The translations under genes and the position numbers were made by a program. This document shows positions 1-33,095 of a DNA stretch of 33,095 bases, one piece after another. Source of the stretch: Octopus sinensis (taxonomy: Eukaryota); the NCBI RefSeq assembly GCF_006345805.1, contig NW_021832095.1, positions 1 through 33,095 of the forward strand, written 5' to 3'. Position 1 is the stretch's first letter; every line of letters starts with the position of its first letter. The notes below the pieces were generated by a model. That model did no database searches, had not been told where the DNA came from, and saw nothing but the letters and a program-made list of their open reading frames with translations.

Positions 1-889
1 TGTTGTTGGGAGGTGCGTTTTGATAAGTCAAAAATCTTCCAGCAGCAACAATAGAAATCCTAAGTATTTTTCATGCATACAAAAACGAACCATATAGTGT
101 ATTCATATAAATAATGTCTCACGAAGTGCTAAGCCACATATCTTTTAACAGAGCGGTAGAGCTAATTGAATAGACATTTCCCAAATCAATTGACCACGAA
201 TCTCAAGACAACCCTGTAGAGATTTCATCTCAGATTGTAGACAGACAAAAATACTAATAATAATCATTTCCAAGAATGCAGCCTTTGCAGGTGCTTCACT
301 ATCTAGGGCATCCTCACTAACTTCATAGATGGATAAGCTAAACAAACACTTGTAAGTTATATATTACCCCGCTGCTTACAATTATTTACGATTATTTAGA
401 TTGGCCTATAAATGGTTAAGTGCACTTTCAAGAAATACAGCAAAATGTCATTCAATATTCGATTCCAAAAGCCATAAATTCCTTCTTTTTTCTCTCGACT
501 TGTACCAAATCTCCCAAAATTTCTTGCAAATAATATTGCAACTTCCATTTGCTGTTTATCAAATCATCCAAACAACGATGTGAATAAAAAAAAACACTGG
601 AAAAAACAAATAGATCATGGATTGGACTGTTCCATTGTTTCAGAAAGGGGATTCCATACTATGTCCTTTGAATTTGGTGTCTCTGGTTAGACCAGAACTA
701 ATGAGGAATCAATTATGATAATTTTAACTCGTTCTATTTGGACATCGAGATTTTAGAAAATTTTTTTTTTTTTTTCCATCTTCATATCTGGCTTTGGTGG
801 ATTATTTACTAGTCTTTCCTTCCACATTTGTATTCAGATAGATACAATTTTGACTTTATAAGATCAATAGACATTATTATAAGAATGAA

Positions 890-1030
890 GGCGGCGAACT
901 GGCAGAATCGTTACTGCACCGGACAAAATGCTTAGCAGCATTTCTTCCGAATTTATGTTCTGATTTCAAGCGCCACCGAAGTCGACTTTGCCTTTCATCC
1001 TTTTGAGATTGATAAAATAACTACCAGTTT
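890..1030 (+). mobile_element. tRNA-derived SINE, family A (head + core), 3'-truncated, diverged
   Basis: GGCGGCGAACTGGCAGAATCGTTA head (A-box-like) and the core GTCGACTTTGCCTTTCATCCTTT shared with the copies at 2547, 7240, 17797, 27209, 28392 and 28781. Confidence 0.85.
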
Positions 1031-1444
1031 GTAAGTGAAACAAAGAGTAATACAAAGTTTGATCTCTATGACTTCCAAAAGGACATTTGTAGCCTAAGAG
1101 AAATTTCTTCAAATGTTGAAATCACATCACCGAATTGGGCGTCCCAAAACTTTAGACCCATCTCTTCATCCGCCACCTATTAAGAACATCTACATGGTCA
1201 TTCAGCCGACTGAAGATAGCAATCATATTTCCTTAAACACCGCACATTAGCGTTTTAAAAAGAGACACATTAAATAACATAGTCCTAGAAACAAAAAAGG
1301 AACAGCATTCCTTACCTTCTGCCCCCAGATTCTAATGATTTTGGATCCTACATAAAGAAGTGATGAACAATTTCCATAGATCGTAACATCAAGGACCTTA
1401 TCCTACTAATATAAATATTTGACTGAAACAATAAAAGAATAAAA

Positions 1445-1447
<3 letters not shown>

Positions 1448-1491
<44 letters not shown>

Positions 1492-1505
1492 AACACACAC
1501 ACACA

Positions 1506-1562
<57 letters not shown>

Positions 1563-1563
1563 A
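1448..1563. repeat. (TA)n/(CA)n compound microsatellite
   Basis: Directly visible. Confidence 0.95.
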
Positions 1564-1627
1564 TGCATGTATTCACAAGCGCACGCGCAGAGCTAGAAAG
1601 TGTTACATATATAGGGAGAAAATGTTA

Positions 1628-1725
1628 TACGTGATCTGATCAATAAGTAGCAGAACACTTGCCATAGCAACGAAGCTAAATCATTGAGAATAAAGCCACT
1701 TGGTACAGATTGACCTTGAAAAACT
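1628..1725 (+). mobile_element. Possible Tc1/mariner terminal fragment
   Basis: TA followed by CGTGATCTGATCAATAAGT resembles mariner-type TIR starts (TA|CGNGGTCTGNTCAAAAAGT); no partner end found. Confidence 0.35.
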
Positions 1726-1731
1726 GTTTTG

Positions 1732-1776
<45 letters not shown>

Positions 1777-1779
<3 letters not shown>

Positions 1780-2090
1780 CAAAATGGGACACGAACGCAA
1801 AACATCCGGACAACAAGGTGATACAAAAAGGGACAACAAAACAGCCGGGTAGATATACAAAAAACAAACAAACAAGGACGGGTCATTCGAAGCTTTCTAT
1901 CCTCGGTCAAGAACCGGATAATCCTCGCAATTTCGGCTGGCTATACTCGAGATTGCTCCAATCTGGCCAGCCCCAAGGAAAAAACTAAGCTAAGAGCATT
2001 AGATTCCTTGGAAAAAAGCAGCGAATGTATACAAAAACAAGGATGGAAAAACAGACGATGTTACACAAATATAAATACAAAATACAATAA

Positions 2091-2127
<37 letters not shown>

Positions 2128-2141
2128 TAATAATAATAATA

Positions 2142-2178
<37 letters not shown>

Positions 2179-2235
2179 TATAATAATAATAATAATAATA
2201 ATAATAGGACATAACAACAGGTGTCTTTCGACTGG
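1777..2235 (-). mobile_element. Unclassified interspersed-repeat-like segment with tandem hairpins, interrupted by (AAT)n
   Basis: Abuts a (TA)n tract; T-rich on the minus strand; stems at 1935-1941/1966-1972 and 1973-1980/2004-2011; (AAT)n at about 2088-2206. Confidence 0.35.
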
Positions 2236-2546
2236 GGGTATATACATATACTGATATAAACAGCTAGGCGCAATGTGATACCATAAAGAAAAAATGTCAT
2301 TGTCCCTAAATGTCACTAAAGGTGCCGAAGTACCTACATTGCTAGAAATAAGAGTTAAAATGTCCTTAATGCTGTAAGAAGAGCACAAATATATATATGG
2401 CGGACGGAATTAGCCGACCATCAGCCGTCGGAGTAGTTACTATTGACGTTGCCTACGGCGAAAGTAGGCCTGTTTTGTTATCCTTGACAGGGTCACGGGG
2501 TGGTTACCTTCCCTGTCAGTGTATGCCAGTATGTATTATGTATACA

Positions 2547-2776
2547 GCGGCGAGCTGGCAGAAACGTTAGCACGCCGGGCGAAATGTGTAGCCGTATTTC
2601 GTCTGTCGTTACGTTCTGAGTTCAAATTCCGCCGAGGTCGACTTTGCCTTTCATCCTTTCGGGGTCGATAAATTAAGTACCAGTCACGCACTGGGGTCGA
2701 TGTAATCGACTTAATACCTATGTCTGTCCTTGTTTGTCCCCTCTGTCTTTAGCCCCTTGTGGGTAATAAAGAAATA
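2547..2776 (+). mobile_element. Full-length tRNA-derived SINE family A with Tx1-like tail (tail 1), 17-bp TSD
   Basis: A-box-like TGGCAGAAACGTT, B-box GAGTTCAAATTCC, conserved core, tail ending GCCCCTTGTGGGTAATAAAGAAATA. Exact direct repeat AGTATGTATTATGTATA at 2528-2544 and 2777-2793. Confidence 0.92.
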
Positions 2777-3972
2777 AGTATGTATTATGTATATATGTAT
2801 GTGTGTGTGTATGTATGTATGTATGTATGTATGTATGTATGTATGAGTGTGTGTGTGTCAGCATTTGACACTATTTCTTCGGGCGTAGATCCATGGTCTC
2901 TCGAGACCGAAGGATGCCAACATGCGTACTACTACATAAGAATACACATATATGCACATATATGTGTATGTGTGTGTGCGTGCGTGTGGTGTGTGTGTGT
3001 GTATTTATGTATGCATGGATGAGCGGATGTGTATGGTCGAATTCACAGCTATAAGAGTGTCTGAGAGAACGCCTTGCAGTATTTTTCTAACTCAATGTTT
3101 TCTGAGTTCAAATTCCGTCTCGATCTACTTTCTTTTTCATTCTTTTAAGTTAAATAGAGTAACAATCCCGCGGTATGAAGACTGACAGTTAAAACACTGA
3201 ACTATACAGAAACCAATACGTGTGTGAATATATCTCTGTGTGTGCGCGCACGCGTATATGGTGTGTGTGTATGCACAAATATACATATACGCATATTATA
3301 TGTTTCATATACAAGCTAAATACGAAATAACTTGACACACTTTCTCTAAGCATAAAAAGCAGAATGTGTATCTAAGTGTTTATGTATGTGTATGTACCAG
3401 TATCATATGTTTGTGAATAACTGTAGTGGTGAACTAGGACCTAAATCACCTCCCTACTTAAGGTTTCGTAAAGCTAGCTGCATACAGACTTGACTGCAAT
3501 CTTAATTAACAAATACTTACTGAAGTGTTCTGTGACATACGGATAATGGAAGTTATTATGAAACATAAGATTTAGGTTTGAAGGACGAATTCCCGCCACC
3601 ACAAAACGCATTCACACATACAGATATACTTTCTCTTGACTCAGTGAGGGTCGCTATACTGGGTCTTTCGAGATACTAGAAATGGCAGCCAAGTTTCCTA
3701 GCCTACTTTATATCATAATTCCCTTAAAAACTGGAAATGATTTGACTCCTCTTGTCCTCAGTTAAAACAATTATTATTCACTCTGTGAAGATTATACTGC
3801 AAGATGCCTGCTGGATGTACATACTTTGAATTGGCGAAGTGCTCCTATTATAACTGAGTGAAGTATAACCAATCTTCCTTCGGTTATTCGAACCCTATGC
3901 TAGCATAGGTTCCTGCATGAAGTACTGACGAGGTCATCGCCTGAATTATACTTATCCTTTCAATTATTATAC

Positions 3973-4038
3973 AGATAGATAGGTAGATAGATAGATAGAT
4001 AGATAGATATAGATAGATAGATATAGATAGATAGATAG

Positions 4039-4077
<39 letters not shown>

Positions 4078-4098
4078 GATAGATAATAAATAGATAGA

Positions 4099-4130
<32 letters not shown>

Positions 4131-4159
4131 GAGACAGAGGTATTTACACACACACACAC

Positions 4160-4202
<43 letters not shown>

Positions 4203-4299
4203 AGATATATTTATATATATATATATATATTATATATATATAAAAGATATATATATATATAAGAGATATATTTATATATATATATAAAAGATATATATA

Positions 4300-4359
<60 letters not shown>

Positions 4360-4362
4360 TAT
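3973..4362. repeat. (GATA)n followed by (TA)n microsatellites
   Basis: Directly visible. Confidence 0.95.
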
Positions 4363-4467
4363 ACCGGAGTAAACACATAAATGTGAAACAAGGTGAAAAA
4401 AAGAGTACTCAAATACCAGTGGTAGAGTAATATGCTTTATTTTAAGCAGCAGAAAATTCAACAAAAT

Positions 4468-4505
4468 CTGTTACCCTGAGTTTCTCGTTGCCGTTCATCA
4501 GACAG
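4468..4505 (-). ncRNA. Minimal type I hammerhead ribozyme motif
   Basis: Minus strand reads CTGT-CTGATGA-ACGGCAACGA-GAAA-CTCAGG-GTA-ACAG: helix I CTGT/ACAG, intact CUGAUGA and GAAA cores, GUA cleavage triplet; A-A mismatch at the base of helix II. Confidence 0.7.
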
Positions 4506-4521
4506 TTTTTTCTAGCAAAAA

Positions 4522-4559
4522 CTGTCTGATGAACGGCAACGAAAAACTCAGAGTAACAG
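4522..4559 (+). ncRNA. Minimal type I hammerhead ribozyme motif (G12 mutated)
   Basis: CTGT-CTGATGA-ACGGCAACGA-AAAA-CTCAGA-GTA-ACAG; the GAAA core is changed to AAAA relative to the other arm. Confidence 0.6.
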
Positions 4560-4595
4560 ATTTTGTTGAATTTTCTGCTGCTTAAAATAAAGTAT

Positions 4596-4640
<45 letters not shown>

Positions 4641-4658
4641 ATATATAAGATAGATATA

Positions 4659-4875
4659 CGAGAGCGTGTCGAAAAGTTCCTGGATTTGGGTAAAAGAAAA
4701 TGCAGGAAGATCAGCTAATTATCATTTTATTCAACATATCCTCTCAGATTCATACACTGAGATTCATAGCGATCCTTCAGTTTTTGTAAGCCCTGTAAAA
4801 GAACTCCGAAGTGTGAACCCCCAGCCAGGCTTTTCGCGACACCCTTAGAGCCAGGAGCGTTGCAGCCCCCACTCG
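4659..4875. mobile_element. Mariner/Tc1-derived MITE
   Basis: TA on both sides (4657-58, 4876-77). Imperfect TIRs CGAGAGCGTGTCGAAAAGTTCCTGG ... CCAGGAGCGTTGCAGCCCCCACTCG. No ORF. Confidence 0.7.
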
Positions 4876-4959
4876 TAAATATACGAGTATGTATACATAC
4901 AAACATAATTAAAAAGTACTCAATATACAATAGAGTGCAATGATAATGATTTCATCAAT

Positions 4960-5075
4960 GGGCATCAGGCCAGAAATATTAGTACTGGGGGCAGGGGGTA
5001 TCAGTTGATTATATCGATTAAGCCTTTGACTCCAGAAAGATAAAAAAATGAAGTGGATCTCTGCAAGATTTTTAC
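4960..5075 (-). mobile_element. Degenerate SINE family A fragment
   Basis: Reverse complement shows a decayed core and a tail similar to other family A copies. Confidence 0.45.
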
Positions 5076-5107
5076 ATAAAGGACCGAACCTACATACTAC
5101 AGGTAAG

Positions 5108-5305
5108 GAGTAAAGACTCCATTCGGTCATGAATGGTCAGGGGGTTGCACCTAGAAAGTTATGAGGCACAAGTCCGAGCAAGATTGTGTATGGAAGACCA
5201 GTTGTCGCCTGTGCATACCAGTCTCCCCTCTCCACGCCTCCGATGGTATACAAAGGAAAGGCAAAGGCGGAAACAGCTTGGCACCAAGGACATCGCAACT
5301 CATTG
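5108..5305 (-). mobile_element. SINE body/3' fragment (possibly RTE-type tail)
   Basis: GC-richer non-coding segment recalled as part of an octopus repeat; no second copy in the window. Confidence 0.35.
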
Positions 5306-6014
5306 TATAATGCACTAACGAGTAATTACAACAGGAATTTTAGCACAACTCATATCGGAAAGCGGTAGCGCGAAACGGGGGTGTAAAATCATTTGCATTT
5401 TAAGTAGTTGTTTTATATATGTGTGTATGTGTATGTGTTTAAAGCGAATGACGTGTCTTTGACGTTTTGGAAGCTATTCCTTCTTCTGAAAGAAAAGACA
5501 TGAAGTGGAAACATGAGGAGAGGCGCTAGGTGTAAGGTTTGGAATAAAGCAACGAGAAAAAAATTCAAAATAATTAAGAGGAAAAAGCAAAAGAGGATGA
5601 ATGGTTGTAAGCCTTGGGGAATGATATTCTTTGGGGATGAATCAGAAAATGACGGGAGGTGCATATGTCAGAATGAGTGTGTGTACCTTGAAGAAGTCAC
5701 GTCGCGAGATGCGTTAGCGTGTGCAATTTGAAGGGTGTATGTACTTATGGTTGTGTGTGCGCGTGCAAACTCGGAGACTTTAGTGCGAGTGTGAGGGTGA
5801 ATGAACGTGTGTGTTTTAGTAGGTAGTGTCAATGCGTGTGTGTGTGTGTGTATGTGAGAGAGAGAGAGAGAGAGAGGCAAGTCTATTTGTGTGTAAATAC
5901 ATGTATTGGGGATGTGGTGTGAGGTGGTGTTCGTAGGTTGAAAGTGTGTGCGATGTGAATAGCGTTTTAATGTCTGTGCACCAACTTGTAATTCTAATAT
6001 GTGTATTGGTCAAG

Positions 6015-6130: not shown

Positions 6131-7239
6131 CTATCAGATTTACTATCTTAATACACGTCTCACTGCAGCTCGTCTCGACCGAGGAGCAATACTGTGTCAA
6201 GCGTGGAGCGAGATTGCACGTCTGGTATCTAGAATGTTGCTATGCACTTGCGGCTTTGATTCAACTGCACAACGCTGTCAGTGGGAAAACAACCATCTTA
6301 TTCTGTAGCAGATTTAGCAGATTAATGGAGGGTATGAACAACGATGGTCTGGGACCGACTGTGGGCGTTAAGAGCAGTCTCAGCAGTCAATTTTGAGCGA
6401 TTTTCTATTCAGGGGCTATGGACATCTTCCAAATATCCTTTACATTACAGTGTTATAAGGAAGAGGCTTTAACTGTTCGAGACAAGCTCTGCAAGCAGGG
6501 TAGTACCAACAGCTGAACCGACTCGGGTTGATCTTCATGTTGTTGTTTGACGCCTTTGATGCTCAATCATTGCCAACTTTTGGGTTTGTGTCGAATAACT
6601 GTTGCCGCATGTAGCATGCAGTTAACTATAAGATGATTTTATAGTGAAGATCGGTGCGCCACATTCTCTTGTAGGAAAGGGCAGCTAGTTTTTCTCTGCC
6701 GAGTGCCTATGACAAGAGGAGTAGTATAGTGGACTCGTCTAAAATGTTTGAAGATAGAAGTAGATAAGTCTGTTGCCCAGCTCACATCAACTTGAAGAGA
6801 AAGATGAAGAAATACAAGGAGATTCTGCCTTCTACTTAACGAAATACGGCTAGGAACAGCAACACTGGTGGGGTTGAATGGCGATTCTAAAGTGGCTTTT
6901 CTAAATAGGAATGAAGATTCCGAGAGAGGGCCCACTTGACGCCATAGACATGACAGAGTAATCTGAGTCTTTGTGTGAAGTTTCCTCCGAATTATCCTTG
7001 ATTGTCTTTTCTCCCGGTTGGGGAAGTTTCCATACATGTTATCATATTTATTCTTGTTTATTTTACTTTTTGTAACGTGATTTTTTTATGAACAAATACT
7101 AAAGTGTTCTGTAACAAGCGTATAATAGAATCTATTATGAAACATAATGGCTCGATGCAAACGACATTTATGTGTGTTTGTATTTCGTCCCTGTATGTAC
7201 TCAACGTTCTGAGACGTTGGGGACAAGATCAATTATTTC

Positions 7240-7363
7240 AGAATCGTTAGCACGCCGGACAAAATACTTAGCGGCATTTCATTCGCCTTTATGTTCTGAG
7301 TTCAAATTCGACTGAGGTCAACTTTGCTTTTCATCTTTTCGCGGTCGATGAAATAAATACCAG
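7240..7363 (+). mobile_element. SINE family A (head + core)
   Basis: CAGAATCGTTAGCACGCCGG...GAGTTCAAATTC...GTCAACTTTGCTTTTCATC. Confidence 0.85.
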
Positions 7364-8490
7364 TTTTAACATCCGGTCATCAGAGTTTTTCAGGTAGGTG
7401 TTTAGGCCAATTGTGACAATCTTCGTTGTTAATTCCAGTTGTAAAAATCCACAGACACCCTCTTTTCTTGGCAGGTAGAGTCGTTATTAGCCTTCTTTGG
7501 GTATTTGCCATTGAGAAGTTTTTCTTGCCATTTATCAGTAAGAAAATCTATGGCAACTGTTTTAGCGCGGGTTTTCATATGCTTAGCTTTTTTCTGTGAT
7601 TGTGTCCTGAACATATAATTGTGTGACACGTTGTATTTGGAATTCACTCAGATAATTCTTTGCCTGTTTTGTTTATGAGTATGGTGTTTTCTTGTTTTCA
7701 TGTCTTAAGACAAGTTTTAACATCCAGTCATCAGAGATTTTCAAGTAGATATTTAGGTCAATTGTGGCAATCTTCATTGTTAATTCCAGTTGTAAAAGTC
7801 CACGACACCTTATTTTCTTGGCAGATAAATTCGTTCTATATTTGCCTTAGGGTAGTGCATTCCTTGCACTGTCAACAATTTTCGTATTTTTCTGTCAAGA
7901 TTACATATTTCAGTGATTGACCAGTTAATAATATTGAGACTAAGTCACAACCGGTATGGCTAAAGTACTGATCGCTTCTATCCTGTTTCTTGCATTCTGC
8001 TCTGTCTTGCCCTTACACTGCGATATTCTTTTCTGATCTTTTCCCTCGTCATTGAGTGTTTGATTCTATCACCATCAAATACCCCTAGGTATTTGTAGTT
8101 CTCCACTGGTTATAACTCCTTTATAGCATTCTGTTGGTCAAAATTAACGTTGCATGTTTCTATCATTTTTCCTCTGATAAAGGTAGCTTTTGCACATTTA
8201 TCGAGGCCAAATTCCATCCTGATGTCATTACTGAATTCTTTAACGATTGCTAGTTGTTGGTCATTTTTTTACAAGGAGCTTTAAATCATCCATGTAAAAA
8301 GAGATGATTTATATTTCTATGAAACACTTTATAGCCAAATTGTACATCATCGATCAATTTCAAGAAAGCTTTTAAGGCTAGACAGAAGAAGAGCGGTAAT
8401 AGGTAGTTACCCTGGAAAATGCTACATGAAATTCGTACATCTCCAGCATTGAGAGATTATGACTGTTCAAAGTGAGTATGGTTACACGTC
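7362..8490 (-). pseudogene. R4/Dong-like non-LTR retrotransposon reverse transcriptase fragment (frameshifted)
   Basis: Minus-strand translation across frameshifts: ISCSIFQGNYLLPLFFCLAL, INHLF/YMDDLKL, FSNDIRMEFGLDKCAKA, YKYLGV, NLDRKIRKLLT, MHYPKA..ERIYLPRK, KWQEKLLNGKYP. These match RT domains 4-7 and the thumb of RLE-type (R4 clade) elements. Confidence 0.88.
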
Positions 8491-8672
8491 ATTGATTGGG
8501 TGAAATTACCGAAATACAACTTTAACAAAAATTAACTTCCAAAATACAGAATTTTCTCAACAACGCCAAGAGTAAAAGATGTTTTATGTGACACATTCTA
8601 CCAGCATACGAAGTTTGAAAGTGTTTAGTTACAAAAAATTATTTCTTAATTCTGTCGGTCAAAAGGTAAAGA
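8491..8672. mobile_element. Possible non-autonomous DNA transposon end
   Basis: Abruptly replaces the LINE 5' continuation. The AT-rich sequence with a GAAGTTTGAAAG motif resembles DNA-transposon subterminal sequence; no TIR pair confirmed. Confidence 0.25.
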
Positions 8673-8877
8673 CCCGAAATTGTGCTTTGTATGTCAGTAA
8701 AATTTCGGATTTTGCGATTATTTTGTTAGAAGGCCGCTTCCTTCAAGTCTTCATCAGGTTCCTTTTTCCCATTCCACCGATGTTATTAGATTAGATTTGT
8801 TCTGTATGGAGAGTCCGGTGTAGCATGTCCCTGTTGTTATTCAGTGCGGACCTGAATCCTTATACAGCACAGAGCTG

Positions 8878-8896
8878 ATTATTATTGTTGTTGTTG

Positions 8897-8952
<56 letters not shown>

Positions 8953-8967
8953 GTTATTATTATTATG

Positions 8968-9001
<34 letters not shown>

Positions 9002-9055
9002 TATTATTATTATTATTATTATTATCATTATTATTATTATTATTATATTATATTA

Positions 9056-9093
<38 letters not shown>

Positions 9094-9136
9094 CATTATT
9101 ATTATTATTATTGTTATTATTATTATTACTATTATT

Positions 9137-9168
<32 letters not shown>

Positions 9169-9178
9169 TATTATTATA

Positions 9179-9222
<44 letters not shown>
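8878..9222. repeat. (TAT)n/(CAT)n microsatellite
   Basis: Directly visible. Confidence 0.95.
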
Positions 9223-9223
<1 letters not shown>

Positions 9224-9897: not shown

Positions 9898-9973
<76 letters not shown>

Positions 9974-10465
9974 GTAAGTAGGTAGGTAGTTAGGTAGGTA
10001 AGTAGGTAGGTAGGTAGGTAGGTAGGTAGACAGGCAGGTAGACAGGCAGGTAGACAGGCAGGTAGGCAGGCAGGTAGACAGGTAGATAGACAGGCAGGTA
10101 GGCAGGCAGGCAGACAGGCAGGTAGGTAGGTAAGTAGGCAGGCAGGTAGGTAGTTAGGTATGTAGGTAGTTAGATAGGTAGGTAGGTAGGTAGGTTGGTT
10201 GGTAGGTAGGTAGGTAGGTAGGTAGGTAGGTAGGTAGGTGGTAGGTAGGTAGGTAGACAGGCAGGTAGACAGGCAGGTAGGCAGGCAGGTAGACAGGCAG
10301 GTAGACAGGCAGGTAGGCAGGCAGACAGGCAGGTAGGTAGGTAAGTAGGCAGGCAGGCAGGTAGGTAGTTAGGTATGTAGGTAGTTAGATAGGTAGGTAG
10401 GTAGGTTGGTAGGTAGGTAGGTAGATAGATAGGTAGGTAGGTAGGTAGGTAGGTAGATAATAGAT
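9897..10465. repeat. Compound (GATA)n-(GGTA)n-(GGCA/GACA)n tetranucleotide array
   Basis: Directly visible, with an internal duplication of about 210-bp period. Confidence 0.95.
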
Positions 10466-11671: not shown

Positions 11672-11701
<30 letters not shown>

Positions 11702-11756
11702 TGTATGTATGTATGTATGTATGTATGTATGTATGTATGTATGTACGTACGTATGT
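11672..11756. repeat. (TATG)n microsatellite, left half of a split array
   Basis: Directly visible; continues at 12487-12526. Confidence 0.95.
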
Positions 11757-12487
11757 CATTATTCAGTTTTATTTCAAGATTGCTTGCCTATTGAGAAAGT
11801 TAGTTTCTAACCTATTTCAACATCAACAACAGGTTATTTTTGTTTGTATGTATGTATCTGTAAAGATCTCTATGTTTTGCTTCATGTATGTATTCTCATG
11901 GATATAGTTGCATATCTAGACAGGCTCATTTAAATGATAAACTTCTTGTAAGTTTTACAGAGTTTTACAGTTCCAGTGTGATGGATTGGATCTGTAGTCT
12001 TCGAATTAGCTTTCTCCTTTCTGGTTTTGAGAAGCCCGATTTCTCAAGATTGGTATTTAAGCAGTGTGTTACATATCAGCGCCCCAATAATTACAGGTAT
12101 AAACCTGAACTTCTAATCTGGATAGAGTAACTTCAGATTTCTCAATAGTTCAGTTTAGGCATTCTCTTTCTCACTTATCTTCAGCTTTATGTTAACATCC
12201 GCTGAGCAGCTAATTTCCATAACTGTACACAGTTTCTCTTATCTATCCCATTATATCAGGTTTGTTGTCCTTACATTTTATTGAGGTTTCCACTGGGACA
12301 TTCCACCAGTATTCCTTTTCATTATGAGTGGCTATAGCTTCGAACATACTATAGGTTCTTGTTTCTTTGTCCTCGGGGTTATCCTTCTGACAGATTTTAT
12401 TATAGAGTGTCCTAGCAACAACATCATGTCTCATCAGTAGATAATACCGTGATAAAATGTTTGGATAACTGTTTATGATGTGGGTGA
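11757..12487 (-). mobile_element. 5'-truncated RLE-type (R4-like) non-LTR retrotransposon inserted in (CATA)n
   Basis: ITHIINSYP..RYYLLMRHDVVA (end of zinc knuckle + RHD), KPDI...MEISC..D...K..EK (PD-D/ExK nuclease), FIPVIIGAL, LQIQSITGTVKLCK; 3' UTR with AATAAA; flanked by a roughly 20-bp TSD containing variant CGTA units. Confidence 0.88.
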
Positions 12488-12969
12488 TGTATGTACGTAC
12501 GTACGTATGTATGTATGTATGTATGTATATTTAGCTCTCTACATATCATACTTAATGTTAATACATCGCTGAATGACAAACAAATTTATTGCGGTATTCG
12601 CCCGGAGATAACCTCCTAGTAATCGTTTTGTGAAAATCGTCCAGGCAACATTTAGCGAGAACACCAGGTGCATTTCTAACTTGTTGAGCGTTGTCAGTGG
12701 TGTGTACTCGCAACCAGCTCAGACGAGGCATTTATATCAACGACAAGCTCGCACCAATTTCTACTCTCAAATTCTATTCACAATGTAATGGTCAATCATT
12801 GGCGACAAATATATAACATTTGTCGCACAGACCGAACGCAGGAATTACGGGGTTATGAGTCGAAACTTTTAATCACAGCCTTGCTCGCAAATTTGAACAC
12901 TTTCTTCTCTGTTTTCTTTATTTCTTTTTTCTTTTTCAATGTATAAAAAATAACACGTCCGGTAAGTAC

Positions 12970-14345: not shown

Positions 14346-14791
14346 ATAAGAGTGTGTGTGTGTTTACATTTGTTGTTAAATCGTGCATTGTGTCCTACAA
14401 TGTCTCGAAGTTAGCAGTTCATCAAGCAGAGATCGATAAAATAAATGCCACATTGAAATACGTACTGAGGTCAGTATGGTCAATTTAATTTTTAGAGGTG
14501 ATACCCCATCATGACGACAGGCGAAAGACTAAATCCAGTTAAATAATGTTTAAAGACTCACTGGCTTCAAATTTAAGGTAATGGATTACTAACCACAAGG
14601 TAATGAATTCAAAACCTCCACTTCATACGATAATACTATATGTACATCTCAGTCTACTTAACTTCCAACAATTAACAATTGTAATTTGAAGTTGAATGGT
14701 GAGCAGTAAAAATGATGTCCAGATTTCTTTAAAAATTATTGTGCAAAATATTCTGAGAAAAAGTACTTTTTCACCACAATAAAACACATAC

Positions 14792-16429: not shown

Positions 16430-16500
16430 CTTGGCAACGAATATTTACACATCTTAGCAACGAATATTTAAACATCTTGGCAATGAATATTTAAACATCT
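16430..16500. repeat. 23-bp tandem repeat x3
   Basis: CTTGGCAACGAATATTTACACAT / CTTAGCAACGAATATTTAAACAT / CTTGGCAATGAATATTTAAACAT. Confidence 0.9.
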
Positions 16501-18026: not shown

Positions 18027-18160
18027 GGTATTTCGTCCGTCGCTACGTTCTGAGTTCAAATTCCACCGAGGTGGACTTCGCCTTTCATCCTTTTGGGGTC
18101 GATGTAATCAACTAGTCCTCTCACCCCAATTCTCAGGCCTTGTACCTTTAGTAGAAAGGA
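18027..18160 (+). mobile_element. Headless SINE family A with tail 2
   Basis: Starts at GGTATTTCGTC; core has a deletion between the two GGGGTCGAT repeats; tail CAGGCCTTGTACCTTTAGTAGAAAGG followed by (TAT)n. Confidence 0.85.
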
Positions 18161-18174
18161 GTATTATTATTATT

Positions 18175-18470
18175 GTTGATCTGACTCAGGTTCGTTCTTA
18201 TTCCTGGTAGAATTTATGTGGTTAGCGGGTAACCTTAGGTATTCACAAGCTTTCAAAAACCTTTCAAATACATAAAATCTTCCTGATAATCTTTCCTGTC
18301 CCTAAAAAGCATACTTTCTGTAGAAGATCTACTAGACATTATTTTCCAATCTCCTTCAACCATTTTTCTATATCTTACTTCCAGTTTCCAAAGCACCAGT
18401 TATTACAGGCACAACGTTTACAATTTTCATATTCCAAATTCTTGCAATTTCAAAATTCAAGGGATTAAGT
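18175..18470 (-). mobile_element. Dong/R4-like LINE 3' fragment in (TAA)n
   Basis: FEIARIWNMKIVNVVPVITGALET / EKWLKEIG*CLVDLLQKVCFLGTGKIIRKIL*, a typical R4/Dong C-terminus; (TAA)n on both sides. Confidence 0.82.
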
Positions 18471-18472
18471 CA

Positions 18473-18545
<73 letters not shown>

Positions 18546-18618
18546 CATCATTATTATTATTATTATCATTATTATCATTATTATTATTGTTGTTGTTGTT
18601 GTTATTATTATTATTATT
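18471..18618. repeat. (TAT)n microsatellite
   Basis: Directly visible. Confidence 0.95.
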
Positions 18619-19148
18619 GAGTGAGAGAGCAGTGCATGCTATCAAAGTGACACTAGGTAAAATATACGAAGCCCAGTATACCCATTATGACTACCCGTCT
18701 GATAAGGGTACACCAGGCACATACATCACAACCATATGTGCGCGACACGGTAATCTCATATCAAGATAAACAACACATGACCTTGCAGGTGGGGCCCAGT
18801 TAGAATTTTCTTCAGGTCGAGTAGCCCATCCCGCTCAAAAGCTCCCTGAATAAGGGTCGTTTAAAGTTTTGAACGAAACACCCATGTTTCCAGAGAATTC
18901 CTCTCAACACATGACTATGATGCTCCCCCACTACTTTTGTTCGTGATCAGAGATACACATATCGCCAGCCACTAAGGGACATGCTCAACTGGTTAAGGTC
19001 AAACAACCGACAAGCAAATCTGTGGTATTGAGCAAAATATTTGTTGTAGCCCATCTTTTATACCAATGCAAAACAATGTACATGATAACACTTCCTATCA
19101 GTTAAGATCAGAAGCCTTGAGAGCCACTGCCTGGTACTGCATCAGGGT
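18619..19148. mobile_element. About 530-bp non-coding insertion precisely bounded by (TAT)n tracts
   Basis: Sharp boundaries with in-phase (TAT)n on both sides; no ORF, TIRs or clear tRNA head. Probably a non-autonomous retroelement. Confidence 0.6.
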
Positions 19149-19177
19149 ATTATTATTATTATTATCATTATTATTAT

Positions 19178-23960: not shown

Positions 23961-24899
23961 AGACTGTAGCTGTATTCAAAGTGTTGGGTTTGTTGTACAC
24001 TGTGTCACACCGATGCTGTTAAGGGCTTGTACTAAGTACATAAGTGAAACGCCCACATATTTATACATTCATTAAATGAATAGGTTGTTTGGTTGTTTGA
24101 ATAACCGAATGCCGGGTGTTAAAACTGAAAGAAGATCCAGCAAGTGAATAAGAAACGAAAACAAGCTGAGTGATGATGTTCGTCCCGGGGTGATGATGTT
24201 TGTCTTAGTTAGAAGACGAAGGACAGTATCCATCAGGCTTCTCAATGCCTGCGACACCGGTTAGAGGAAGCGAGTTGTTCTAATATCGAGGACCTTACCC
24301 GAATGTTTGCAACAGCATGAACCCTGCCAAAAGTACCCAAGGACACCAGTTGGTGGCGTTAAACTGAGAAGTTAAGTCTGCCATCCTCTTTACTCCACGA
24401 TACTCTTTATAATTATTTCCTACAATAATCGATTTCATCAGGTACACGATTCAGATTTATAAACGAGGGAGGTGTTCTAATATGACTGCTACCAAAATAC
24501 GAATACAGCGTGGATTATGAATGAATAAACGGATTCATATTAATGTGTATTTAATCCCACTGCGAAATTATACCCTTGGTGTGAAAATGACACCGTATAT
24601 TTACCAATCTGTGATCAACGCTTTATTAGTAATCAAACAATTATAGTAGAAACGTCACCTTGGTACCAATGTGCACATGTAAGCAAAAATTGTGCAACTC
24701 TGGCATACATTTTAATAAATAGCATTTCGCTATGTTGCCTTGGCATCTTGAGAAGAAGAGGTGAATGAATGCTGATGAGTAGTTACATCACAACGAAACC
24801 ATCCGATTCGATATTTACTCCAAGCTATCGAAGAAAATAAAACCTGGAATCTAAGAAAACATGTAAATTGCAAGAAAATCTAAAAGAGTTGGGTTATCG

Positions 24900-25395
24900 T
24901 AAAGGCTGAGCAAATCTGACGCTTTGGACACAGGTCTTTTGCCGGAATACTGAAGAAGTCCTCGAACGATTGTTTCGCAGTGAGACTAAATACAATGAAC
25001 ACAACTCCGTGTTTTATTTACTATGCGATTACGACAGGTTCTAATCTTTAGTGAGGTATGTAAAATAAATCGGCTTCAAGATTCGAGCCCTACTTACATA
25101 TACTTGATGGAAACATAGTTCTAGGCAAGGGTATTTGACGTAAGTAACTACCTGAAGTATATTTGCACGCGTATAGGATGATATGACAATCTTTGTGAAC
25201 ATTTCAAGAGTCCGAAAATCCCATAGCTACGACGAATTCTTCAGAACGTCGAGTGTAGTTATGGGGTCTACGAACTCAGTCAAGGTTGCAGATTTGGGTT
25301 TTTTTTTATATACTTTACAAACTAAAGAACTTCTAGAAACTGAGGTGGGGTATATGGACTTTATAGGGATAACACTTTCTTACCCACTTCCGTAA
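24900..25395 (+). pseudogene. Highly decayed L1/Tx1-like reverse transcriptase
   Basis: Correctly ordered relics across frameshifts: GHRSFAGILKK, LRQV..FS, FEP/LL, AY/DDMTIFVN, GS.N..K, FIGITL. Confidence 0.45.
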
Positions 25396-25559
25396 TTGGA
25401 AAGACTGAGAAAACCTCTCCATACTTTCTTCGTGAAATTCTGTCCCTCTTTATCTTTCAAAAGGTGTAGTAAAGGGCTGACTTTTTGGATGCTATACTAG
25501 ATTTAGATACGAAATTTTACTCCCCATACCATACAGCCAATCGGAATCTTCACTACGTA

Positions 25560-27208: not shown

Positions 27209-27401
27209 GGTTTCAAATTTTGGAACAAGGCCAGCAAGTTCGGGGACAAGGATAAGTCAATTACCTTGATCCCGGTACTCATCTGGTACATATTTTATCG
27301 ACACCGAAAGAGATGAAACGCAAAGTCGATCTCGACGGAATTTGAACTCAGAACATAAGGGACGGACGAAATGCCACTGAGCTATCTGCCAGCTCGCCGC
27401 T
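27209..27401 (-). mobile_element. SINE family A with tail 3, aged 20-bp TSD
   Basis: Head (internally deleted), core, tail GGCCTTGTTCCAAAATTTGAAACC. Flanks TTTCATCCTCCATTGGTATT (27189-27208) and TTTCATCCTTCAATGATATT (27402-27421) are 17/20 identical. Confidence 0.85.
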
Positions 27402-27580
27402 TTTCATCCTTCAATGATATTAGCTTATAATAACTACAGCTAAACTTTTAAACTAAGTGGAAGGTGCAGATCATGGATAGTTTAGTTTTCACATTGAGAT
27501 ACTTGCAATAGAAGGACTTTCGTCAGTCTCTTCCAAGGAGACAAACACACATTCAAAAATTCATGTCAGGGAAAGACATA

Positions 27581-27797
27581 AGGAGAGGAGCTTTCTCCGT
27601 CCGGGTTGCGGATCCGTGGAACAAGCTGCCAGACGAGATGGTGAAGATGCCGACGACCGCTTTGTTCAAAGCCTCCCTTGACCTCAAGTGGCCTGAACTC
27701 TTTACATGAACACCACCCTGTACTTAACTCCATGTCCCCCTACATGGCCTTGCTATTTGCTTTTGAACCAAATTAACTAACTAACTAACTAACTAAC
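27581..27797 (+). mobile_element. CR1-group LINE 3' end with (CTAA)n tail
   Basis: RRGAFSVRVADPWNKLPDEMVKMPTTALFKASLDLKWPELFT* (27581-27709) fits the FS.RV...WN.LP.....FK..LD C-terminal motif of CR1/L2 ORF2; short 3' UTR; tandem CTAA tail. Confidence 0.88.
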
Positions 27798-27864: not shown

Positions 27865-28179
27865 CAGGCCTAGCCAACTCGAATTACATTGCGGGCCTCT
27901 TTAATCACAGAAAGTTTTTTGAGGGCCGCTTGTATACTGCCAAAATTGAAAGCATTTTACTTTCTCGTGCTGTTATTACAATAATAAAGGAATGATCGTT
28001 GGTTCAACATGAAATATTATCCTTATTCTTTTTTTACTTTTCCTTACAATCTTTAATTTTAAAAAAAATTATTTTAATGTTTGTTTAAATAAACCAATTT
28101 CAAGAAAGTATCAAGCGGGCCGCAAGATAAAAGTCTGCGAGCCGCATGCAGCCCGCGGGCCTCTGGTTGGCCAGCCCTG
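27865..28179. mobile_element. hAT-superfamily MITE
   Basis: TIRs CAGGCCTAGCCAAC / GTTGGCCAGCCCTG; 8-bp TSD TTCTGCAC (27857-64) / TTCTACAC (28180-87); subterminal GCGGGCC motifs. Confidence 0.88.
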
Positions 28180-28391
28180 TTCTACACGGTCAAAAGAGCT
28201 GCTGGAAATAGCACCGAAATCTCCCCTCAATCACATCCAACTGTTTTAAAAGAATGATACATCGGCCATTGTATTTCTAACTAATGACTGTAAATTAAAA
28301 ACAAAAAATGGCAGGATGATCCTGGCTGTTACGCCAAACAAGAAGATGCCTGCACAGTAATTTTCTTAAAATGGCATAAATAAAGTTGGTT

Positions 28392-28607
28392 ATAATCCTT
28401 TCTACTATAGGCACAAGGCCTGAAAGTTTAGGGAGGGGTCTAGTCGATTACATCAACCCCAGTGTTTCACTGGTACTTAATGTATCGACCCTGAAAGGAT
28501 GAAAGACAAAGTTGATCTCTGTAGAATTTGAACTCAGAGCGTAGCGGCAGACGAAAAACCACTAAGCATTTTACCTGGGGTGCTAACGATTCTGCCAGCT
28601 CACCACC
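28392..28607 (-). mobile_element. Full-length SINE family A with tail 2
   Basis: Head, core and tail CAGGCCTTGTGCCTATAGTAGAAAGGATTAT on the minus strand. Confidence 0.88.
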
Positions 28608-28719
28608 GTCTTAATAAGATTCGTCATAATCAGTGTGATTGTTATCTGGTGTTTACTATATTTTCCTCTCTATCAGAAGTTCGTCTTTTGTCCTTCAGCT
28701 TTTCCTTCCGCAACCTTTC

Positions 28720-28776
<57 letters not shown>

Positions 28777-28780
28777 GATT

Positions 28781-28987
28781 GCGAGCTGAAAGAATCGTTA
28801 GCACACTGGACGACATGCTTAGCGGCATTTTGTCCGTCTTTACATTCTGAATTCGAATTCCGTAGAGGTCGACTTTGCCTGTCATCATTTCGAGGTCGAT
28901 AAATTAAGTACCAGTGAAACACTAGGATCGATGTAATCTATTTAGGCCCGACACCCAAAATTACTAGCCTTGTGCCAAAATTTGAAA
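28781..28987 (+). mobile_element. SINE family A with tail 3 followed by long (ATT)n
   Basis: Head, core, tail AGCCTTGTGCCAAAATTTGAAA. Confidence 0.88.
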
Positions 28988-28988
28988 A

Positions 28989-29042
<54 letters not shown>

Positions 29043-29084
29043 TATTATTATTACTATTATTATTATTACTATTATTATTATTAC

Positions 29085-29147
<63 letters not shown>

Positions 29148-29152
29148 TACTA

Positions 29153-29204
<52 letters not shown>

Positions 29205-29425
29205 CATAATTATCATCATCATCATCATCATCATCATCATTATTATTATTATTATTATTAACCTTGTTGCTATTGTTATTGTTGTTTTTGTTGTTGTTGT
29301 TGTTGTTGTCATTGCTCTTGTTGTTGTTGTTGTTGGTCTTAGTGTTGTTTCTATTGTCGTTAGCGTTCATACAGTTTGCTGTCGTCCTTGATGCTGCTAC
29401 TGCTGCTGCTGCTGTTGTTGTTGTT
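28988..29425. repeat. (TAT)n-(CAT)n-(TGT)n-(TGC)n trinucleotide array
   Basis: Directly visible. Confidence 0.92.
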
Positions 29426-29802
29426 ATACTATTTCAAGTACAACAATAGCACGGTCAAGGAATGTTTTGTCCGTGTCGTTTTGCTTTATTATCGTGCACG
29501 AAACGGCTCCGTTTGACAGCCAGTAGTTTGCCGATAGATTTTGTCAGCTTAATTATGATCCGGCCTGATAAAAGCTGATAAAATTTGACGCGGTTTAAGG
29601 AATTAAGAAGAGTAAAAGCAGAAATGAAAGGAGGGAAAATAACGCACACGTACACATACATACATACATGCACGCGTACACACACGCATACATACACATA
29701 TTACGTACGTGTACACACCTATAGACATGCACATACACCACACAGAAAATGTAAGAGAATGATTAAAATGGAGAAAGCAATGGAGAAATAATTTCAAACG
29801 GC

Positions 29803-29932
29803 GAGATAGATAGACAGATAGATAGATCGATAGATAGAGACAGACAGACAGACAGACAGCAGAGAGAAAGACAGATAGACAACAGATGATAGATAGATAG
29901 ATAATAGATGGATAGATAGATAGATAGATAGA

Positions 29933-29964
<32 letters not shown>

Positions 29965-30131
29965 GGAGATAATAGATAGATAGATAGATATATGATAGAT
30001 AGATAGATGATAGATAGATAGATAGATAGATAGATGCTAGATAGATAGATAGATAGATAGGTAGAATAGATAGATAGATAGGTTGATAGACAGACAGACA
30101 GACAGATAGAGATAGATAGATAATAACAGCC

Positions 30132-30173
<42 letters not shown>

Positions 30174-30182
30174 CAGACAGAC

Positions 30183-30239
<57 letters not shown>

Positions 30240-30240
30240 C

Positions 30241-30272
<32 letters not shown>

Positions 30273-30322
30273 GCATACATACATACAGACAGACAGAGAG
30301 ACAGACAGACAGACAGATAGAT
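29803..30322. repeat. (GATA)n/(GACA)n array
   Basis: Directly visible. Confidence 0.95.
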
Positions 30323-32260
30323 AAGTTTCTTTATTGGCCACACAGGGCTGCACACAGATGGGACACATTACAAGGTAGAGCTTTTCTTTTGGGGGATGAA
30401 AAAAAAATGGTGGCGTAGGTTTCCGATCAAAAGGGATCGTAAAAGGGAAAAAAGAAAGAAAGAAAAAAAAGGAAAAGAATCAAAAGAAAAGAAAAAAGAA
30501 AAAAGAAGAAAAAGGAGGAAAAAAGGGGAAGATGTAAAAAAACGATCAATAGGGAACCTTGTATCACAGTGTCATGATGTACGGTGTAAAGGGGGAAGCA
30601 GATAAGGTTTATCCGTGGGAAGAAAAGCCTACGAAAAAGACCACGGTAACCTCGGTCAATATTGTTATATGTTACCACATTTGTTTGCAAGTGGGTAACC
30701 CTCTGTTTTCAATTTCTGGGTTCATAGGATTATGCTCAAGGTGGCTTCGTCATTCATACGTGCCATCCTTGCTACATTCAACCATTTTTTTTTTAAACAT
30801 TCGCTAGACAAAACTTGCCTCTCTACTCTCACTTTCCTTTGAAGAAGTTGAGAGATTAACCAGAGAGGAAAGTGTTTGTCTCCAATCCTTTCAGATGCGT
30901 CCACCAGATACATTCTTTCGCCATAGCCACAAGGATGATGAAAATAGCTCTTCCTTCCCGTTTGAAGGAAGGAGGCGTGACAATATTGACGATAGACTCA
31001 GCTGATAAACCGACTCGTCCCACACGTGACAGCAGTTGTTCGGCATAAGCCCACAGGTCGGAAATTGTTGGACACTGCACGAGTGCGTGCAGAACGGTTT
31101 CGTCGCTCTGACCGCATCTCGGGCAGGTCGGCCCCGTGTTTCTCGAGCCGTGTCTGTAGAGCTTATCCCGAACGGGTAGCGCTTCTCGGTAGCCTTGCCA
31201 GACCAGGGATCTCTGGAAGTTGTCCATGGGCCCTGGCCCGAAAGTCGTCCCGAACAGGCAGGTCAGGTATTCCTCGTCGACGTCCAGGTTCGCCCCGAGC
31301 TCGTCGTCGTACCTCCCCTCCACTAATCCCCTATAGAATGCTTGGGTTGTGATGGAGTCACTCAGGGTCGACCCGGGACGGCAGAGTTGCTTGAGAGCAA
31401 CGTGACACTCGCGGTGCCATTCGCCCTTCCTCGGCCTCTTTTTGATCCACGACTGCACTTCGGTCATAGAGACTAGCTGCGGGAAAGCGTGCCTCACAAA
31501 CAGCAACCACACCTGTTCACCGTCGTCTACGAAGAGCCTGAGATGTCGCAGTCTCAGAGCGTGTCTGCGCATTATCAACCACGGCATGCCCAGTCCTCCT
31601 TTTAACGGGTGTTGACAGCAAATGGATCGCCTGACCATCGGGACGCATCCTTTCCACAAGAAGCGAAAGAGAATGCGTTCTAGTTGGGTGATGGTAGGGT
31701 CGGGACAAGGCACGACAGTCAGGCGGTAGTAGATGACGGACGCGATGTACGTGTTCGCCACCTCCGCCGGACCTTTTAGGGACAGTTTCCTCTCGGCCCA
31801 TTGCCGGGCGAGAGTGACCACCCTTCTCGTTATCTCGTTCCAGTTCTTCTCCATTTGGAGGTCCGGACCGAACCAGACCCCAAGCAACTCGACCGGACCG
31901 TCGGTCCAGCGTCCCACGACGAAGTCGCTGGTGGACGGCATGAGCTTGTTTCTCCAGGTGCCTAGTCGCAAGCCCACTGACTTTTCCCGGTTGATTTTCG
32001 CTCCTGTCACCGCTTCGTAGTTTTTCAGTGTCTCACCGACCTTCTCGATGTGCTCGTGGCTAGACACTATGACGGTGATGTCGTCCGCGTATGCAGACAC
32101 GCTCGTCCCGCATCCCAGTTCTCGCGGGATGCCCCTCAGAGTTGCCAGCTTCCGCAATAATGGCTCGAGATTCAATACGTATAGAAGCGAACGTGCGATG
32201 TCGAAAGGTCTCGACAGATGTCCATTTACGCGAATTACCGAACGGGTGCCTCTGTACAAA
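30323..32260 (-). mobile_element. 5'-truncated Tx1/L1-clade non-LTR retrotransposon
   Basis: ORF2 C-terminal half plus a pyrimidine-rich 3' UTR ending GCCCTGTGTGGCCAATAAAGAAACT; bounded by (GATA/GACA)n and (GGTA)n. Confidence 0.93.
30722..32259 (-). pseudogene. Tx1/L1-type ORF2 remnant (RT domains 4-7, thumb, zinc knuckle)
   Basis: LLYVLNLEPLL, SAYADDITV (YADD at 32080-32091), YEAVTGAKINREKS, LLGVWFG, LSLKG, GGLGMP, CPRCGQSDETVLHALVQC. Stop/frameshift near 30856, after which ERQVLS..KKW continues to 30722. The QG motif is missing. Confidence 0.92.
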
Positions 32261-32324
32261 GGTAGGTGGTAGGTAGGTAGGTAGGTAGGTAGGTAGGTAG
32301 GTAGGTAGGTAGGTAGGTAGGTAG
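32261..32324. repeat. (GGTA)n microsatellite
   Basis: Directly visible. Confidence 0.95.
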
Positions 32325-32765
32325 GGAAAACATAAACATAACCGAGAGTTGGTAAAACTTAAAGATTGATTGGAACAAAAAAATAACATTGAAAGTGAAA
32401 GGAGAGGGAAAGGAAGGAAATAATGAAAAAATATTGGGAGAAAATAGGGGATTGAAGGAAGAAATGAGTAGAATAAGGAAAATGAGTAAAAGAAGGAAGA
32501 ATGGAAAATTAGAATGAAGAAAATAATAAATGACAATTACATTGGTGTTCCCGTTGCTTTCCTCTGTATCTGTCTAGCTAATTCTCTAAATATTTATCTA
32601 TCTACCTATCTTCTGTCTCTGTCTGTCTGTCTGTGTGCGTGCGTGCGTGTGCACGTTTGGTCTTTCAAGTTTTTCTCATTTTATTGTAATTCATTAATTC
32701 CATAAATCGCTTCATGATTCATGGGCTTTTGTTAGAAAGAAGAAGAAAAGAAGAACAACAACAAG

Positions 32766-33095
32766 AGTAGTGGTAGTAGTGGTGGTGGTGGTGATGGTGG
32801 TGGTGGTGGTGGTAGTGGTGGTAGTAGTAGTAGTAGTAAGTAGTAGTAGTAGTAGCAGGAAGATGACAATGAGGAACGGCAACTTCGACATGACGATGAG
32901 GATGAGGATGATAATGATGTAGAAGGATGCATATAACAGAAAGAAAGAAGGAAGGAAGGAAGAAAAGAAGGAAGGAAAGAAAGAAGGAAAGAAGGAAGGA
33001 AAGAAAGAAAGAAGGAAGAAGGCAAGAAGAAGGAAAGAAGGAGAAACAAAGAAGGAAAGAAACAAAGAAAGAAGGAAGGTAGGAAAGAAAGAAAG
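32766..33095. repeat. (GTA/GTG)n and (GAAG/GAAA)n low-complexity tracts
   Basis: Directly visible. Confidence 0.9.

Follow-up and report, generated by a model that had tools for sequence, protein, structure and literature searches.

R4/Dong-like pieces at (TAA)n and one R4-like copy in (CATA)n in a repeat-dense stretch of the Octopus sinensis genome

Family-specific targeting and seeding of microsatellites by retroelements have already been published (PMC3812793, PMC4494074, PMC8557442, PMC8303610, PMC2887409; all papers are cited here for the parts consulted). TAA repeats are the target of Dong, of DongAg and of the snail element DongBg, and Waldo, Mino, Kibi and Koshi target ACAY, AC, TC and TTC, respectively (PMC3812793). 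Togen targets TG and some HERO families are microsatellite-specific (PMC4640811), crocodilian Tx1 families occur in TTCC and TTTC repeats (PMC4494074), and the Naiad Penelope-like elements (PLEs) are biased to (TA)n (PMC8557442). Seeding of microsatellites has been described for CR1-L3 in snakes (PMC8303610) and for RTE in Lepidoptera (PMC2887409), and the octopus element RTE-2_OV has a microsatellite in its 3' untranslated region (UTR) (PMC9115989). In Octopus vulgaris, Dong-R4, CR1, L1-Tx1 and Penelope families have been recently active, Dong-R4 being represented by 1,129 insertions in five families; the main-text portions of that paper that we cite contain no analysis of flanks (PMC13282606). 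Here we consider 33,095 nucleotides of Octopus sinensis DNA (contig NW_021832095.1; "the window" denotes this whole stretch), for which a first-pass annotation had proposed that retroelement families divide microsatellites among themselves as niches, and that by seeding, targeting and duplicating simple repeats they could help to feed the extreme microsatellite load. We find an association of R4/Dong-like pieces with (TAA)n that exceeds chance and a single R4-like copy that fits insertion into (CATA)n.

The window is intergenic DNA dense in repeats, with 38 arrays of period 1–4 and at least 30 bp reported by TRF (5,283 bp, 16% of the window). Profiles built from 31 of 68 DongC-type homologs, a set gathered with DongC as the query, and from 36 of 90 Tx1/L1-like homologs, both picked by length, mapped five R4-like and two Tx1/L1-like pieces (Table 1). 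All five R4-like pieces are on the minus strand. As in Dong, DongAg and the known mollusc member DongBg, a restriction-like endonuclease C-terminus and similarity in the reverse transcriptase (RT) go together with a location in (TAA)n; the locus differs in that only fragments are present, that more than one family is likely to reside on TAA and that (CATA)n contains an R4-like piece of more remote similarity. The best homolog of DongC, P0091, matches it at 65% (E 2e-61), and the solved structures closest to P0091 are R2 proteins. Full-length homologs of DongC measure about 1,100–1,200 amino acids (aa), and the Pfam family of the apurinic-type endonuclease (APE) is found in 0 of 68. A CCHC knuckle and what we take to be the RHD and PD-(D/E)xK motifs of R4-like C-termini are visible in DongC, with PD read as LD, and are decayed in the (CATA)n piece; DongA and DongD align to the RT part of the profile. 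Because the alignment of DongB with DongC reaches only about 55% and no similarity links the 3' UTR of one to that of the other, the two are likely to be different families using one motif. DongA has (TAA)n on its 5' side and is cut at its 3' end by a copy of a short interspersed element (SINE); its segment 8499–8877 is without protein homology, the last homology lying 380 bp short of the array, and the internal duplicates 7356–7485 and 7707–7835 (87%) may stem from a template jump or be part of another copy. DongC abuts a SINE-C piece at its 5' end. DongD, which had escaped the first-pass annotation, meets (TAA)18 at its 5' end.

Table 1. Positions of the elements and arrays discussed in the text
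Feature	Position	Strand	Description
1777 element	1777–2206		309 bp (1777–2085) between (TA)21 and (TAA)41
Fold-back piece	4364–4592		arms ~4436–4513 and ~4514–4591, minimal hammerhead-like motif per arm, between (TA)n arrays
Second hammerhead-bearing piece	5439–5835	-	decayed minimal hammerhead-like motif at 5488; ends set by eye
Tx1b	6154–~7085	+	older Tx1/L1-like relic, 38% to P0001, E 1e-21; 3' end set by eye
DongA	7356–8877	-	decayed R4/Dong-like RT fragment, profile positions 574–888, best independent E-value (iE) 1.6e-30
(ATT)n array	8878–9223		TAA on DongA sense strand
(TATG)n array	11672–11756		3' flank of R4-(CATA) piece; holds TACG variant units
R4-(CATA) piece	11757–12486	-	C-terminal piece (RHD, PD, E motifs) and 3' UTR; iE 1.5e-7 and 2.2e-6
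(ATGT)n array	12487–12528		5' flank of R4-(CATA) piece; TACG variant units here too
Short-type SINE-A	18027–18174	+	terminal ATT units (about four) form the 3' flank of DongB
DongB	18175–18474	-	R4/Dong-like C-terminus and 3' UTR, iE 3e-6; (TAA)n both sides
(ATT)48 array	18475–18618		separates DongB from passenger
Passenger	18619–19147		529-bp non-coding element, (TAA/ATT)n both sides
(ATT)10 array	19148–19177		separates passenger from DongC
DongC	19178–~19860	-	zinc knuckle, restriction-like endonuclease region, 3' UTR ending in (TAA)n
CR1-like 3' end	27500–27797	+	one-sided (CTAA)6 tail at 27774–27797, none at 5' end
DongD	28606–28721	-	short R4-like RT fragment, iE 7.7e-4; 45% over 38 aa, E 8e-5
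SINE cluster	28722–29260	+	(TTA)18, SINE-A 28781–28987, (ATT)90; polarity opposite to Dong
Tx1a	30322–32259	-	5'-truncated Tx1/L1-like RT and zinc-finger region; 67% to P0001

The association of elements with repeats was compared with a null in which the annotated elements were removed and repeat motifs were scored at positions of the leftover host sequence, and flanks were called by two procedures. At sense-strand (TAA)n we count 3/5 R4-like pieces with the first caller (P 1.6e-4) and 4/5 with the second (null 0.025, P 1.9e-6; 3.1e-5 unstranded). With DongB and DongC merged and DongA dropped, two of three pieces remain (P 0.007), and homology-defined 5' ends alone give two of five (P 0.004). 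R4-(TAA) is the only association in the window that exceeds chance, the other pairs being single cases. By analogy with what is published for Dong, an endonuclease that targets TAA is the likely reason for the presence of R4/Dong-like pieces in (TAA)n. The proposed residence of Dong-like elements and of a non-coding passenger in (TAA)n thus stands as to their presence and, for R4, as to its excess over chance.

We consider it probable, on the whole, that the window combines TAA targeting by R4/Dong-like elements, the sharing of that one motif by several kinds of element, and single cases with separate causes; those other element-repeat pairs likely have ordinary explanations of their own. A Dong-like endonuclease that targets TAA would leave fragments in (TAA)n with one polarity, a divergent R4-like copy would enter a pre-existing (CATA)n array and duplicate a short stretch of it, and a SINE tail of ATT units would seed an array in which Dong-like pieces and the passenger could then insert. 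Several points weigh against this reading. The sample is one window, its five R4 pieces being distributed over three or four arrays, and DongA, DongC and DongD meet TAA at one end only. Most 3' ends were drawn by eye at arrays, which inflates the counts of both callers and makes them partly circular, and the second caller was written after the first had miscalled interrupted arrays. For homology-defined 5' ends adjoining any repeat the count is 4/8 (P 0.059, the CR1 position being set by eye), and a label permutation of motif sharing between families is significant when R4 is included (P 0.007). Finally, both the R4 and the Tx1 placements are putative, made by similarity and without named clade references.

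Passive association, in which random or break-driven insertion, dense repeats, biased retention and deletions ending in arrays would place elements beside microsatellites, draws on the 16% of the window that is array and on the one-sided repeat that a random point has 28–34% of the time. A number of pieces end where another element cuts them, which points to deletions being common, and the same motif stands on both sides of only 4/34 elements with either caller (null 0.11–0.13, P 0.53–0.67). In the annotation, matching motifs on the two sides are confined to DongB, the R4-(CATA) piece, one SINE, the passenger and the fold-back piece. Passive association is a good fit to the SINEs and possibly to the 5' junction of Tx1a; it leaves unexplained, however, the choice of TAA with one polarity by the R4 pieces and the duplication of a variant unit around the (CATA)n insertion. 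As an account of the whole window we hold passive association to be quite improbable, and for R4-TAA it is disfavoured.

The R4-like element placed in (CATA)n by the first-pass annotation is indeed present between two (TATG)n arrays, and an exact 17-bp duplication with TACG variant units occurs at both of its flanks, making this the clearest insertion junction in the window. The TACG variant is found near 4 of the 19 CATA-class runs, two of these four being the flanks in question. Because the variant-unit duplication is on both flanks, the arrangement fits insertion into a pre-existing (CATA)n array with about 17–20 bp duplicated; duplications in pure arrays are unreadable and hence went uncounted. 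The duplication is an observation and targeting of (CATA)n is what we infer; one copy (n=1) is in itself no demonstration of a preference. Identity to R4 homologs is 30–35%, and a homolog search with the piece itself as the query returned no match; its best matches in the Atlas are unnamed clusters, the nearest named one, zf-RVT at 0.80, serving as a lead only. The 3' UTR of the piece (11757–12070, minus strand) contains two short CATA runs, possibly proto-repeats or carried-over flank. Among described elements, the ACAY target of Waldo, of the R1 clade, covers the ACAT/CATA unit, whereas the (CATA)n piece of the window resembles R4 proteins and not R1. A literature search that covered few subscription journals and did not include Repbase yielded no R4 family in (CATA)n, no Tx1 family in GATA arrays and no family-by-motif analysis for cephalopods. 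Fell et al. (2025) reportedly screened 4,464 animal assemblies, and their tables could already include CATA or GATA targets.

Niche partitioning with feedback would assign R4 to TAA and to CATA, Tx1 to GATA/GGTA and PLEs to TA, with seeding and duplication driving the repeat load. Among the 13 elements with a repeat that could be assigned to a family, a set without the 1777 element or the passenger, motifs are shared by 6/14 within-family and 1/64 between-family pairs (stranded; P 0.023 with the position null and 0.007 with label permutation). Both the R4-(CATA) piece and Tx1a are truncated at the 5' end within 2 bp of arrays whose motifs each have a null frequency of about 0.007, and the duplication at the (CATA)n site, the SINE tail of ATT units adjoining DongB and the snake precedent of seeding driven by long interspersed elements (LINEs) (PMC8303610) point the same way. 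The signal, however, disappears without R4 (0/4 within-family pairs), all within-family sharing coming from that group and each of the other element-motif pairings being represented by one copy; the second Tx1-like piece has no repeat, and none of the 58 Tx1 relatives considered below ends in one. Moreover, the occupants of the TAA/ATT arrays are of four kinds or more, namely Dong-like pieces (four), the 1777 element, the passenger and SINE-A in the opposite polarity; each of the six TAA/ATT arrays of at least 30 bp touches an element (6/6). Because these arrays are common to Dong-like pieces, passenger, SINE and 1777 element, their sharing represents convergence, not partitioning, and the proposed division of niches is not supported by the window. 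We regard partitioning with feedback as unlikely; the same doubt attaches to its more specific form, in which an R4-like lineage switched from TAA to (CATA)n, a Tx1-like family targets GATA/GGTA, SINE tails of ATT units create Dong targets and such motif-specific families feed the microsatellite content.

The reading that we prefer, TAA targeting with a shared motif, has a place for seeding in the segment 18027–19860, where a SINE ATT tail, DongB, (ATT)48, the passenger, (ATT)10 and DongC follow one another. This layout is observed; the order of events is likely a local chain in which seeding preceded targeting, and the SINE at 18027 could instead have landed at a pre-existing array. As to the repeat load, arrays were counted as touching when an annotated element lay within 15 bp. 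By this measure 22 of the 38 arrays (3,012 of 5,283 bp, 57%) touch no annotated element, including arrays of 558, 441 and 358 bp, and one of the 16 that touch an element is internal to the Tx1a UTR. The window therefore gives no ground for attributing the repeat load to feedback, as the first-pass annotation had suggested doing, although the element-free share may be lower if elements went unrecognised. Insertion into an existing array, moreover, adds the duplicated bases only, an argument also made in PMC2887409. Of the three processes proposed, targeting is supported for R4-TAA and duplication is seen at one (CATA)n site, and seeding is plausible; a wider partition and feedback on the repeat load are at present hypotheses.

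The two Tx1/L1-like pieces bear differently on the proposal that a Tx1 element occupies GATA/GACA/GGTA repeats. Tx1a does adjoin such repeats: its 3' UTR stops right after AATAAA, as in its relatives, and is followed by (TATC/TGTC)n, and its 5' break meets (CCTA)n. The flanks are, however, two different motifs without duplication, and Tx1b, which the first-pass annotation did not list, has a microsatellite at neither end, so that one of the two Tx1-like relics in the window (1/2) lies in a repeat. Insertion of Tx1a at a junction of the GATA-GGTA type, or a later deletion, is possible; the former is conceivable because a compound GATA-GGTA array free of elements occurs at 9899–10456. Tx1a retains a 467-aa open frame with a 9-aa deletion in the RT and lacks the APE part. 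Its homologs contain PF03372, PF00078 and PF13966, the solved structure closest to it is LINE-1 ORF2p, and a predicted protein of O. bimaculoides matches the Tx1-like frame at 78% over 46 residues. Like Kibi, Koshi and the crocodilian Tx1 families, Tx1a is an APE-RT-zinc-finger element of the L1 group beside repeats that are pyrimidine-rich on the sense strand; those families occur in (TC)n, (TTC)n, (TTCC)n and (TTTC)n, whereas Tx1a, in one copy and with no duplication, is flanked by (TATC/TGTC)n and (CCTA)n.

A search of GTDB contigs recovered 66 loci of Tx1/L1-like relatives at 35–47% identity, 65 of them overlapping and from one assembly. No repeat was found within 50 bases of the 3' end in any of the 58 relatives whose end could be located (0/58; eight lacked the anchor pattern, which was picked after a likeness to SINE-A had been spotted), and none of the 66 loci has a GATA-class run of four units. 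Targeting of GATA is therefore not lineage-wide among Tx1-like elements, as far as these distant and non-independent relatives represent them. One relative, L009, carries both open reading frames (ORFs), ORF1 and ORF2. The loci themselves (L001–L065 on contigs CAXXMW01... and L066 on CAXXGD010000016.1) are eukaryotic-type non-long terminal repeat retrotransposons with two ORFs in assemblies labelled as bacterial metagenome-assembled genomes, one of which has two-ORF elements head-to-tail with a period of about 6.4–6.9 kb on many contigs. These are likely misbinned host DNA.

Known PLEs have a minimal type-I hammerhead layout, an inverted arrangement and TA flanks (PMC4209133, PMC8557442), all of which recur in the window, whose motifs also match the short helix I and palindromic helix III of PLE hammerheads. 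A hammerhead descriptor has five matches, at 4501, 4526, 27526, 3925 and 5488, and its two strong classes account for four of them, against 0 in 12 shuffles. The core has no mismatch at 4501 (minus strand), one at 4526 (plus strand) and two at 5488 (minus strand). The pair G10.1–C11.1, listed as conserved in PMC4209133, is missing at 4501 and 4526 and present at 5488. The window pieces further differ from PLEs in that neither a PLE protein nor an Rfam hammerhead match was found; the 229-bp fold-back piece has no ORF for a PLE RT or GIY-YIG, which decay could hide. We infer that the fold-back piece is of PLE type. A hammerhead-bearing, PLE-like piece is thus found in (TA)n as proposed, but the second piece, absent from the first-pass annotation, is not in pure (TA)n, being flanked by a mixed TA/TG tract and by (GT)(GA) repeats. 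By analogy, the hammerhead-bearing pieces likely reflect the known loose preference of PLEs for TA-rich dinucleotide repeats.

A weak hammerhead-like motif at 3917–3960 (plus strand, two core mismatches) lies about 20 bp ahead of (GATA)n at 3973. A candidate relic of a PLE-like RT at ~24300–25550 (plus strand) had been proposed from weak PLE-RT-like words; it has no match among 1.84 billion representatives or in the Atlas and is treated as unassigned. This stretch of normal GC content ends at a TG/TA array; with its boundary drawn there, it is included in the counts of both callers and excluded from the 5'-end test, and the figure of 9/10 coding relics that the second caller gave is for this reason set aside.

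Profiles of three SINE-like families matched the window 13, 7 and 3 times; because one of the 13 matches (14411–14488) overlaps a match of family C and was counted once, the number of copies is 22. SINEs touch a repeat in 4/22 cases with the second caller (null 0.28, P 0.91) and in 9/22 with the first, which is looser (null 0.34, P 0.31), leaving 18/22 and 13/22 copies, respectively, with no repeat at either end; within the window, SINEs insert irrespective of repeats. SINE-A copies adjoin ATGT, ATC, ATT or no repeat, and the long-type SINE-A copy at 2548–2776 (region 2530–2795) is flanked by a 17-bp duplication that lies in degenerate TATG sequence. Of four short-type SINE-A copies, two terminate in ATT repeats and a third retains a trace of them. 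Tails in (ATT)n and (CTAA)n had been reported for SINE and CR1 elements; they occur at the SINE at 28781–28987 and at the 27500–27797 piece, but most SINE copies are free of repeats, and the CR1 label is our assumption from a CR1-like motif in frame 27512–27706, in which Pfam had no match. These tails likely came with their own short repeat, and seeding from such one-sided tails, the (CTAA)6 and the SINE ATT tails, is plausible; one-sided short repeat tails are likewise a feature of CR1-L3 and RTE seeding, although those of the window are short or single cases.

In the window, a profile built from the 3'-terminal sequences of those Tx1/L1-like relatives matches the tails of four short-type SINE-A copies only, at 28404–28438, 28952–28979, 18117–18152 and 27215–27251 (E 2.3e-5, 0.05, 0.052 and 0.58; scores of 19.1, 8.3, 8.3 and 4.9 bits, against 7.5 for the best of 50 shuffled windows). 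This likeness suggests that short-type SINE-A shares its tail with a LINE and may have a partner of the L1 group. The passenger contains no tRNA according to ARAGORN and matches no Rfam family. Its tail resembles the 3' UTRs of DongB and DongC no more than shuffles do, and its true partner may lie outside the window; a 28-bp match to the UTR of the R4-(CATA) piece was dismissed as chance (2/100 shuffles among 55 pairings). The 1777 element has no second copy in the window.

Pfam searches in six frames over most of the non-array sequence returned RVT_1 and zf-RVT in Tx1a and otherwise low-complexity matches. Rfam, applied to the entire window and separately to two pieces, gave miRNA-like chance matches under the gathering scores and no hammerhead, and ARAGORN found no tRNA in the window. 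A 23-bp minisatellite (3.1 copies) lies at 16430–16500, and a 67-bp interspersed repeat of 79% identity occurs at 3502–3568 and at 7085–7147, the latter copy adjoining the presumed 3' end of Tx1b.

The window adds an octopus case to the known targeting of TAA by Dong, the TA bias of PLEs and the repeat tails of retroelements. If a loop of seeding followed by targeting is true, it would be an extra mechanism of repeat growth in cephalopods, at which the window hints for (TAA)n only. The R4-like insertion in (CATA)n is the main new item, in a single copy; if it replicates, closely related restriction-like endonucleases for TAA and for CATA would exist in one genome, and the determinants of target choice would become testable.

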